A stretch of 32,000 bases of DNA. It comes from an archaeon (GTDB lineage: Archaea; Asgardarchaeota; Thorarchaeia; Thorarchaeales; Thorarchaeaceae). The stretch is from the NCBI GenBank assembly GCA_024275415.1, contig JAJRZD010000034.1, forward strand, positions 30,001 to 62,000, in the 5' to 3' direction. Under the pieces are notes generated by a model that did no database searches, was not told where the DNA came from, and saw nothing but the letters and a program-made list of their open reading frames with translations. Below are positions 3,843 to 31,998 of the stretch, one piece after another (within the stretch, counting starts at the first letter, position 1; each line of letters opens with the position of its first letter). Both the position numbers and the translations under genes were made by a program.

Positions 3843-3931
3843 AACCTTCCACTCCACTGAGAGGTTGAATTTGAAACGATATATATTCTCACTACTGCCC
3901 GCAATGCCATTCTAGCTCCCACCACAATCTC

Positions 3932-3937
3932 TATAAA
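3932..3937 (+). promoter_or_regulatory. Putative TATA box for tRNA-Lys
   Basis: TATAAA 27-32 nt upstream of the tRNA 5' end at 3964. Confidence 0.5.
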
Positions 3938-3963: not shown

Positions 3964-4129
3964 GGGCCAGTGGCTAAGCCAGGTATAGCGACAGGACGTT
4001 CGGAACCCCTCCGGCGTGTTGAAGCTCTTAACTTGTAGAGTCTGGGATTCCCCCTGGCTCGAGGAATGGTCGAGGGTTCTTCGCTATTGATTTCCAGTAG
4101 CAAGCCCAAAAATCCCTCCTGGCCCGCCA
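3964..4129 (+). tRNA. tRNA-Lys(CTT) with three introns (30/31: 3995-4023; 43/44: 4037-4066; 56/57: 4080-4109); CCA encoded
   Basis: Exons 3964-3994, 4024-4036, 4067-4079, 4110-4129 join to GGGCCAGTGGCTAAGCCAGGTATAGCGACAGGCTCTTAACTTGTTGGTCGAGGGTTCAAATCCCTCCTGGCCCGCCA. Cloverleaf: acceptor GGGCCAG/CTGGCCC, D-stem GCTA/TAGC, anticodon stem ACAGG/CTTGT, loop CT-CTT-AA, T-stem GAGGG/CCCTC, loop TTCAAAT. Each intron folds into a BHB-like junction. Confidence 0.93.
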
Positions 4130-30090: not shown

Positions 30091-30252
30091 GCCGCCGTGG
30101 CTCAGTAGGTAGATGATACCTATTTTGGTATCAACCGAAAGCGACAGCCTGTTACCTTTCGGTCAACCAGACTGGGAGCCAGACAGTTGTTGGTCGGAGG
30201 TTCGAGAGACCGTCAAATAAAACATAGCGGTCAGAAAACCCTCCCGGCGGCG
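30091..30252 (+). tRNA. tRNA-Asn(GTT) with three introns (22/23: 30113-30139; 37/38: 30155-30184; 59/60: 30207-30238); CCA not encoded
   Basis: Exons join to the 73-nt GCCGCCGTGGCTCAGTAGGTAGAGCGACAGCCTGTTAAGTTGTTGGTCGGAGGTTCGAGCCCTCCCGGCGGCG. Acceptor GCCGCCG/CGGCGGC, D-stem GCTC/GAGC, anticodon stem ACAGC/GTTGT, loop CT-GTT-AA, T-stem GGAGG/CCTCC. Each junction is BHB-like. Confidence 0.93.
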
Positions 30253-30369
30253 CTATTCCACTTTGTTTCCATAGTGTGTATCTAGTTTGGGGCCAAACTG
30301 GTGGCACTTCTATCTACTGCGCAACCACTCTTGGACAGCCCGTCGCTTCCTGATATCATTGGGAGGGCA

Positions 30370-31998
30370 TTATATGGCCCAACGAATCGTGTCCTCAAGC
30401 GAGTCAGTAGTGGCAATCCAGCAGACTGAAACCCTGTCAGTTCTTGGATAGTAAGATACACGTCTAGGAAAGAAGGAAACAGCAAAGCCCAATCCTTCGG
30501 CAAGGCGGCACTCGTCTCTGATGAGGTTATTGATTGACATATTCACGACGTTAAGGAGGTTTGTGACAGTTTCGGCAATGGCAGGGTCGTTATCTTCCTG
30601 CAGTTCCTTAAGCTTATTGATAGACAGGGTGGACTTTGGGATCAAGCCTCTGATGGTCTTCCCCTCTTTCTTTATGAGTTCAATCTCCTCTTGTCCTATC
30701 ATCGACTCCATATCATAGTGCTCCTTCTCCATATTGACATGGATGGCATGGCTACGAGACCACATGAATCTCCCACGCCCGAAGCTTCCATCTTCGGGAA
30801 TAAGCTCTTCAAGATAGGCGCGTTTGGACTCGTCTGACCAATCAACATACGTGGGAGGAAGTCCTGGGTTGTTGATGGTTTTGTTACCGGGAGTCATCCC
30901 GTCATCCAAAAGAACCAATCCAATCTGGCAATGGATATGAATGTCATATTTGCCTTTGCGGTATTTAGGTTCGAGCAAAATAGTCCCAAACTCACTAATG
31001 GTATCCTGTACTCTCAGAATCCTTCCCATGTGTGCCTCGTTATACGCAATTCGGCCAGTCGGCCATAGATGACAATCACTGATGACCACCGCCGTAAGCC
31101 TTGCCTTTAATATTTCAAGTTTTTTTCCTTCAGGAAACCGTGGATTCTTAATTCCTGCTCGTCCGCTTATTCCTGCTATCTTGACTACTAGTCCTTCGAG
31201 ATTCGACAATCTTCTTCGGGAGCCATCAAGATACATCCTGATGATTTTCCCTTCGAGGCGAGTGCTGTAAACGTCGAGAGGTCGTTTCCTTGCGGGTTGT
31301 CCCTCGTCGTTATCCATGAACTGTCTGACAATCTCGTTGATGCGTGGCAAGTCCCTGCGTAGAGTCCCATTGAGTCCTAGTGTCTTCCGCAGTTGGTCGA
31401 TTATCCTGACGACGTCGCCTCGATGTCTGAAATAGAAGAACTGATCCTCATAAGGTCGCACGAGTTCATCAGGTCTGTGCATGGGCACCCATGCGTACAT
31501 CGTGTTCTCGACCAGCGCCAAACGAGCTCGCACATGGACAAGTCCGAGAGCAGATGAAAGGGAATCCTCTATCCGTTGTTTGTTTGCGCGAAGGTATTGC
31601 TCGATCTGCCTGATCCTACCGGTTTCAAGTTCAGGATACAAGATTGCACGATAAAACCTCTCATTGACAGTAGGACTGTTTCTTATCATCTCTGCAATCG
31701 CAGAAACTAGATTCATCTGAGTGAGTTCTTTCGCGTTTTTGATGGTTTCAAGGGCATCGTGGACGAGATGTTTCTCTATCGTGTGGGCGGTTAGCGACTC
31801 AAAGAGGTCTAGACTTGTGGTGTCATACATTCTTTCGAGGGTGGCTCTGTCTATCTCTGGGTTGCTCTTCTGCCACCCACTGATGATACATTCTTCCTCA
31901 TGCTTTCTGAGGTCTTTGATCTGAGCTGGTTCGATGGCATTCCACGAATTGGTCACAAATCCCTTGCTGACGCCGTATTTTACCGCAATCTCATCGCG
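30370..31998 (-). CDS. HTH + LAGLIDADG-like (homing endonuclease fold) protein; 5' end lies beyond the window
   Basis: Frame is open to the edge (RDEIAVKYGVSKGFVTNSW, HTH-like). Degenerate LAGLIDADG-like helices ARLTAVVISDCHL and KRAYLEELIPEDGSF lie about 95 aa apart; no intein splice motifs seen. Confidence 0.6.
   Translation of the reverse strand, partial: RDEIAVKYGVSKGFVTNSWNAIEPAQIKDLRKHEEECIISGWQKSNPEIDRATLERMYDTTSLDLFESLTAHTIEKHLVHDALETIKNAKELTQMNLVSAIAEMIRNSPTVNERFYRAILYPELETGRIRQIEQYLRANKQRIEDSLSSALGLVHVRARLALVENTMYAWVPMHRPDELVRPYEDQFFYFRHRGDVVRIIDQLRKTLGLNGTLRRDLPRINEIVRQFMDNDEGQPARKRPLDVYSTRLEGKIIRMYLDGSRRRLSNLEGLVVKIAGISGRAGIKNPRFPEGKKLEILKARLTAVVISDCHLWPTGRIAYNEAHMGRILRVQDTISEFGTILLEPKYRKGKYDIHIHCQIGLVLLDDGMTPGNKTINNPGLPPTYVDWSDESKRAYLEELIPEDGSFGRGRFMWSRSHAIHVNMEKEHYDMESMIGQEEIELIKKEGKTIRGLIPKSTLSINKLKELQEDNDPAIAETVTNLLNVVNMSINNLIRDECRLAEGLGFAVSFFPRRVSYYPRTDRVSVCWIATTDSLEDTIRWAI

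Follow-up and report, generated by a model that had tools for sequence, protein, structure and literature searches.

A standard 30-nt BHB intron design in Thorarchaeota tRNA, RNA polymerase and non-coding RNA genes and its possible arrival with DNA-cutting gene cassettes

How intron DNA enters the tRNA genes of Asgard archaea was termed a "central open problem" in a 2026 preprint surveying these introns (10.64898/2026.10.13.758758), which states that no general copying, mobile-element or reverse-transcription route was found for them. As in that survey, single genes hold several non-canonical BHB introns, gains have recurred, EndA is of the two-subunit type and copying between tRNA types is almost absent, but intron length differs, a median of 22-23 nt being given there. 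Within the part of the survey that is accessible, neither a fixed 30-nt design nor a loop consensus, mRNA or ncRNA copies or a link to endonucleases is mentioned, and no route of arrival is settled on. The intron transposition reported for Thermoproteales (Fujishima 2010, as related in PMC4033280) likewise concerns a large number of non-canonical introns, each with a tetramer matched to the exon at its site; as that account has it, however, the case is defined by similar intron sequences across tRNAs and positions, which across positions are not seen here. Another arrangement was described for Caldiarchaeum (Sugahara 2012, PMC3293823), where, as in the loci reported below, a 5' tRNA stump, foreign DNA and an intron-bearing gene follow one another, and where the intron blocks reinvasion. 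The Caldiarchaeum element is predicted to encode a recombinase, whereas no integrase was found in the cassettes scanned here, and the present loci further differ in having genes of endonuclease type, introns of one design and targets that include protein genes. In phage intronless or collaborative homing (SegB, MobE; PMC2988022), a free-standing homing endonuclease lies by a conserved target and the intron is devoid of an ORF. The introns concerned there are group I ribozymes, unlike the 30-nt protein-spliced introns of an archaeal chromosome treated here, where endonuclease cleavage is proposed. Finally, a BHB intron inside coding sequence is known from the cbf5 pre-mRNA of Crenarchaeota (PMC2738675; PMC7714728), besides which a literature search covering few subscription papers found no archaeal mRNA introns. 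There, one gene is affected, whereas here the tRNA module is also present in rpoA2, rpoA1 and a non-coding RNA and is tied to cassettes. By analogy, the route proposed below would work like the phage systems and resembles the Caldiarchaeum model.

The window, i.e. the whole stretch of 32,000 nt that was analysed (G000:C10:30001-62000), belongs to a Thorarchaeota host genome of 3.5 Mb and contains a tRNA-Lys(CTT) gene (3964-4129, plus strand). ARAGORN and Rfam missed this gene and returned no matches in the window, and since both were blind to it, a parser was built on a tRNA profile that allows for introns and scores BHB motifs, by which, together with intron removal, the gene was delimited. 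Twelve genes of the host genome were curated by hand; badly parsing type II tRNAs of relatives were left out, and the tRNA sets of relatives are partial. A putative promoter, the TATA-like element CTCTATAAA (3929..3936, plus strand), lies about 30 nt upstream, and similar elements also precede Lys genes and stumps in relatives. All on the plus strand, exon 1 (3964..3994, tRNA positions 1-30) is followed by a 29-nt BHB intron at 30/31 (3995..4023; 8-bp bulged stem, loop ACCCC), exon 2 (4024..4036; 13 nt, holding the CTT anticodon), a relaxed 30-nt BHB intron at 43/44 (4037..4066; 9-bp stem, loop ATTCC), exon 3 (4067..4079; 13 nt), a 30-nt BHB intron at 56/57 (4080..4109; 9-bp stem, loop ATTTC) and exon 4 (4110..4129), in which CCA is encoded. 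The central helices of the introns have 4/4, 3/4 (relaxed) and 4/4 pairs, and each is accompanied by an intron-side helix, as is BHB geometry. Removal of all three introns results in a 77-nt cloverleaf with 21/21 stem pairs, anticodon CTT and encoded CCA, and thereby confirms the lengths of 29, 30 and 30 nt given in an earlier, sequence-only reading of this DNA, which had also named the three loops and the terminal AA correctly. Its stem of about 9 bp holds for introns 2 and 3, each with one mismatch per nine stem pairs, but not for intron 1 with its 8 bp and bulge; the four exon-complementary bases it assigned to every intron were found in introns 1 and 3, whereas in intron 2 an A38.G mismatch leaves 3/4 exon-facing bases paired. 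The gene is the sole match for tRNA-Lys(CTT) within the assembly, database matches to its 5' half are mostly Thorarchaeota records, and a real tRNA-Lys(CTT) with BHB introns at 30/31, 43/44 and 56/57 is confirmed. The equal length of the two inner exons is probably due to chance, other combinations being found in relatives. As a separate observation, introns at 43/44 and 46/47 nearly always possess a 3/4 central helix with an A.G mismatch at its outer end, and the rpoA2 intron of the host genome described below carries a similar G.A mismatch.

Two EndA genes with subunits of ordinary length were identified in the host genome, consistent with the two-subunit type, for which broad specificity and the ability to cut non-canonical sites were described (PMC5829648). 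As drawn in Fig. 1 of the Asgard survey (10.64898/2026.10.13.758758), EndA cuts two bases into each 3-nt BHB bulge, so that a single unpaired base at the start and, at the end, four bases that pair with the exon followed by two more are common to all BHB introns. Of the features noted in the Lys introns, the first base, the tetramer and the AA at the end thus reflect ordinary BHB geometry and are uninformative on common origin. Thus, three of the five shared features that had been taken as one architecture are generic, while the length and stem as well as the loop are not. Terminal AA was found in 24/50 introns of the host genome as compared to 21/34 in a sister-family genome that lacks the 30-nt design.

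The non-generic part of the architecture proved to belong to a Thorarchaeota family-wide module, consisting of 1 nt, a 9-bp stem, a 5-nt R-Y-U-Y-C loop, 4 exon-pairing nt and 2 further nt. Lengths of 28-32 nt are found in 41/50 host introns (19 of them having exactly 30 nt) and in 74/102 introns of seven other genera, as opposed to 2/34 with a median of 20 nt in the sister family, for which a single genome was available. The shared micro-intron design claimed for the Lys gene is thus substantiated well beyond it, although the same host genome also has 18-, 20- and 59-61-nt introns. The AYYYC loop was likewise found enriched outside the introns from which it had been derived, occurring at intron positions 11-15 in 4/12 other non-canonical 30-nt host introns (0.11 expected) and in 7/21 such introns of the seven other genera (0.18 expected; P<1e-4 by shuffling in both cases), so that neither loop nor length is randomly distributed in the intron set. 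Among 63 non-canonical 30-nt introns, many of which are orthologues, a purine is found at position 11 in 57 cases, T at position 13 in 55 and C at position 15 in 57, from which the loop consensus R-Y-U-Y-C, usually with a G-C closing pair, follows. The 30/31 loop of Lys in relatives is mostly ACTTC or ATTTC, of which the ACCCC of intron 1 is a drifted form. In 16 distinct orthologous Lys 56/57 introns the outer stem is highly variable with compensating changes while the loop is kept. Stem mismatches comprise 56 G-U pairs as compared to 17 A-C, which shows that selection acts on the sense RNA fold, i.e. on the transcribed strand; these mismatch types rule out the opposite-strand (DNA or antisense) hairpin as the selected form. 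The design occurs at 44 tRNA-site combinations, conformity to it amounting to 54-59% at 3'-half sites, 21% in the D-arm and 15% at 37/38.

To our knowledge, the splicing enzyme reads only the BHB shape, and a conserved loop is hence unexpected. Several simple sources of the loop were considered and rejected. It does not appear to help weak BHB motifs, as 59/60 introns with a full motif conform equally; derivation by copying from the tRNA T-loop or from the sequence at the insertion site gave a weak signal (P=0.04, in one of several tests); the CRISPR repeats of the genome are unlike the module by inspection; and an extra EndA domain is absent as judged by subunit length. Apart from the module, a GGGGTCA motif, which may act as a guide or bind a protein, recurs in the 59-65-nt introns at 37/38 and in a number of Trp and Leu(TAA) introns, examples being tRNA-Met(CAT) on C43 and tRNA-Trp on C82 of the host genome and Leu(TAA) and Met genes in relatives.

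A shared design may result from copying, and spread of the introns between positions by reverse splicing or translocation had indeed been suggested. This suggestion found no support. A cross-position comparison of 206 introns (17,898 pairs), evaluated against a null that keeps loop and pairing, identified two pairs with at least 70% identity, where the null gives about one, and none with at least 80%. The Lys introns are pairwise 48, 30 and 43% alike, the genome mean being 24% and the 95th percentile 43%; they lie in the upper tail of similarity, yet are far from copies. Each of them sits in its own same-site family among relatives, which shows one intron lineage per site, contrary to the idea of spread within one tRNA, and no donor copy of the Lys introns was found elsewhere in the genome. 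The further expectation of near-identical introns elsewhere did not hold for other positions; in another tRNA a single case was seen, the 30/31 intron of tRNA-Met in the relative G075 being 95% identical to the Lys 30/31 intron. This sole near-identical transfer preserved the position and thus points to DNA recombination. According to the Asgard survey (10.64898/2026.10.13.758758), families spanning tRNA types account for 28% of Thermoproteales introns versus 1.5% in Asgard, a contrast with which the absence of cross-position copies agrees. Across 55 distinct Lys-CTT genes, zero to three introns were counted in many combinations at sites from 22/23 to 59/60, a distribution by which gain and loss of introns is supported.

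A scan of the host genome for the design revealed two sites outside tRNA. One of them lies in an unannotated, conserved RNA, non-coding and about 120-150 nt long (G000:C28, about 640-830, on the minus strand; L122 and L333, relatives L334-L346). A TATA element precedes this RNA, its core is rich in CCTCCT, it has a terminal stem, and an Rfam search gave no match. Its insert has exactly 30 nt, a 4/4 central helix and no target duplication and is missing in the 14 relatives aligned, one of which has nearly identical flanks; by this comparison, it is a recent gain. An inverted partial look-alike of the 5' part of this RNA was observed directly downstream of the host copy. The other site is rpoA2, in which a 30-nt intron (L121:3984-4013, minus strand) splits the Phe codon of the trigger-loop motif MTLRTFH and introduces two in-frame stops. 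It is present in 3/30 loci read, and in five rpoA2 introns, two of which were read from metagenomes and are also linked to cassettes, the loop and closing pairs are invariant and the stem covaries. The 5' arm and loop of the rpoA2 intron resemble the intron-free target codons Arg-Thr-Phe, which is not general among tRNA introns. A frame-repairing hairpin scan for further mRNA introns in the host genome yielded 60 candidates, of which rpoA2 alone was convincing; in the relative G063, the start of rpoA1 bears a 30-nt intron. Two metagenome scans yielded nothing.

In two relatives (G006 and G007), rpoA2 is interrupted: its native 5' half stops where the intron site lies, and downstream come a cassette of 5.5-7 kb, a replacement 5' half with 70-75% identity to the first, then the intron and the remaining, native 3' half. 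The intron hence marks the cassette junction. The cassette encodes a protein of 1,314 or 1,437 aa, and three more relatives of this gene that were looked up each precede a split rpoA2. In G063, a cassette-like 1,198-aa gene is followed by the intron-bearing rpoA1 start (L354:271-4213), the contig beginning too close to show a stump. The host genome gave no match to the large cassette gene but retains a 46-bp remnant of cassette-type upstream DNA at rpoA2, so that its intron looks like a cassette leftover. The large protein itself matched nothing in Pfam, PHROG, Atlas or by fold and its model is of low confidence; no nuclease domain was recognised in it, which counts against homing. Its N-terminal motif is common to members of a free-standing double-LAGLIDADG family. 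A 1,129-aa protein of G003 (L350:5164-8550) also has this motif together with a PD-(D/E)xK-like stretch and perhaps belongs to another endonuclease cassette. Neither integrase nor HUH domains were found among the cassette proteins scanned, and no tyrosine recombinase was thereby identified between a tRNA stump and the restored gene; three integrase matches of the host genome lie on other contigs.

The free-standing double-LAGLIDADG family is present in 48/86 family genomes. Its members have two motifs and a predicted fold with a pLDDT of 95, which matches I-Tsp061I best (E=1e-7) and further PI-SceI and I-DmoI in the PDB, and a homing endonuclease fold is confirmed for them at the level of the structural model. 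By a hand count, about 10/31 copies lie within about 2 kb of a tRNA where about 6% would be expected, the nominal P of 8e-6 being overstated as genomes are related and tRNA lists incomplete. Copies were found near intron-bearing Lys (G046, G048), Asn (host window, G007, G014) and Ala (G009) genes, and in G075 the distance between a copy and the Met gene with the Lys-type 30/31 intron is about 2 kb. In G046, the LAGLIDADG gene, which encodes an intact protein of 599 aa, is flanked on one side by an inverted Lys stump that lacks introns and breaks off at position 33, and on the other by a Lys gene bearing the 30/31 intron. Within the window, a degenerate member (30307..31956, minus strand) converges on a three-intron tRNA-Asn(GTT) gene (30091..30252, plus strand); its frame runs past the window end, stops occur near 30372 and 30312, and the first motif reads SDC for SDG. 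The Asn introns at 22/23 (30113-30139), 37/38 (30155-30184) and 59/60 (30207-30238) are looser members of the same design and conform to the earlier description, having 27, 30 and 32 nt, a terminal AA in two cases and a TATTTT loop at 22/23. Following this tRNA (30250-30255), CTA is found and not an encoded CCA as in almost all other host tRNA genes. Further host copies of the family are located on C118 by tRNA-Thr(GGT) and, as a fragment, at C10:67446.

Part of these data counts against homing: neither an endonuclease gene nor a stump lies beside the Lys gene within the window, most LAGLIDADG copies adjoin protein genes and show no intron in the surrounding 1.5 kb, and introns are lacking in some of the neighbouring tRNAs, e.g., the host Thr-GGT on C118. 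Moreover, both the end points of Lys stumps (position 33, within the 30/31 intron or at its end, 47-54) and their cargo genes vary; together with the inverted G046 stump, this fits ordinary integration as well. In the genome-scale Asgard survey (10.64898/2026.10.13.758758), no enrichment of mobile elements near intron gains is reported, with low power stated, which also speaks against homing. The Lys-CTT locus of relatives (L067, L082, L090, L095, L164, L355-L366) can hold up to three stumps of promoter plus 5' half at a spacing of 1-2 kb, some of them inverted and every one with another cargo gene behind it, so that the whole looks like a gene-capture array. A 368-aa gene in a Lys stump of G003 (L099:1549-2652) was set aside as cargo, as it has an RxxxxH motif and its relatives lie mostly off tRNAs; this HEPN-like family is scattered as cargo over nine genomes.

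Considering the evidence for both sides, the introns more probably arrive with selfish DNA-cutting gene cassettes than as copies of one another, and spread by DNA homing as endonuclease-resistant alleles is assigned a probability of about 0.5. According to this reading, a free-standing endonuclease cassette would cleave a conserved site of the intron-free allele, whereupon homologous repair from a donor would copy in the intron-bearing allele, either alone or along with the endonuclease gene and a replacement 5' half. As the intron would split the recognition site, the new allele should be resistant to the endonuclease, which may later decay or be deleted, leaving the intron alone. The two-subunit EndA would cut the introns and a tRNA ligase would join the exons; the three Lys introns would then represent three separate homing events. 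Such homing would explain a patchy, position-preserving spread without cross-position similarity. Left unexplained by it are the first making of a new intron and the fixed loop and stem length, for which, as a guess, a host factor may be invoked, as an alternative or a complement, that binds RNA and recognises the loop at a fixed spacing from the BHB. Combining both, a dedicated factor may recognise a standard mini-intron (9-bp stem, R-Y-U-Y-C, 30 nt) that fits any RNA and spreads as an immunity allele with endonuclease cassettes, an extended reading that is tentative and, taken as a whole, doubtful.

Rather unlikely, yet also able to hold alongside homing, is that the host acts as a filter only: miscellaneous insertions or integrating elements would supply introns, from which the splicing or turnover machinery keeps 30-nt hairpins with the loop, the elements having an intron-bearing attP as in the model of Sugahara 2012 and the endonuclease genes being bystanders at recombination hot spots. 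The better conservation of loop than stem in the 16 orthologous 56/57 introns, the selected sense RNA fold and the many Lys stumps with unrelated cargo agree with such a filter; it has to contend with canonical 37/38 introns, which use the same machinery but conform in 15% as compared to 54-59% in the 3' half, with the 18-, 20- and 59-61-nt introns of the same genome and with an EndA without an extra domain by length, and it does not predict a stump that breaks exactly at the rpoA2 intron site. Sites of integron-like or HUH-type elements have variable arms with a fixed spacer and in this may resemble the hairpin, which might accordingly be the DNA recombination site of a mobile element whose intron disguise keeps the target gene alive. 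The hairpin does lie at the right junction of the rpoA2 cassettes, and the break point of some Lys stumps falls within an intron or coincides with its end, but the cassettes scanned have no integrase or HUH domain, the hairpin is whole after insertion and not divided between two junctions, and the mismatch types favour the sense RNA strand, which renders this idea improbable.

Transposition at the RNA level, by which excised introns would reverse-splice into BHB-compatible sites and, after reverse transcription, return to the genome by recombination, perhaps inside a single tRNA, would account for a single design across 44 tRNA-site combinations, for the recent ncRNA insert that fits its site 4/4 without target duplication and for the upper-tail similarity of the Lys introns, and a Lys 22/23 versus 30/31 pair with 67% identity is suggestive of it. 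Against this stand the lack of any cross-position pair with at least 80% identity, with a negligible excess over the pair-shuffled null, a genome without a donor copy, the at most 57% likeness of the recent ncRNA insert to any sampled tRNA intron and the contrast between Thermoproteales and Asgard given in the survey, so that RNA transposition is considered improbable.

The link of the proposed homing route to the three Lys introns is circumstantial, but the open question of intron arrival becomes directly testable, as candidates are now at hand: endonucleases identified by name, matched alleles with and without an intron, a cassette located precisely where the intron lies and a recent gain whose flanks are unchanged. 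Occurrence of the module in RNA polymerase genes implies the splicing of essential mRNAs and the splitting of these genes by gene callers. If true, the combined reading of a loop-recognising factor and spread with endonuclease cassettes would provide a concrete route of intron gain in Asgard archaea together with an intron-internal recognition signal in protein-spliced archaeal introns.
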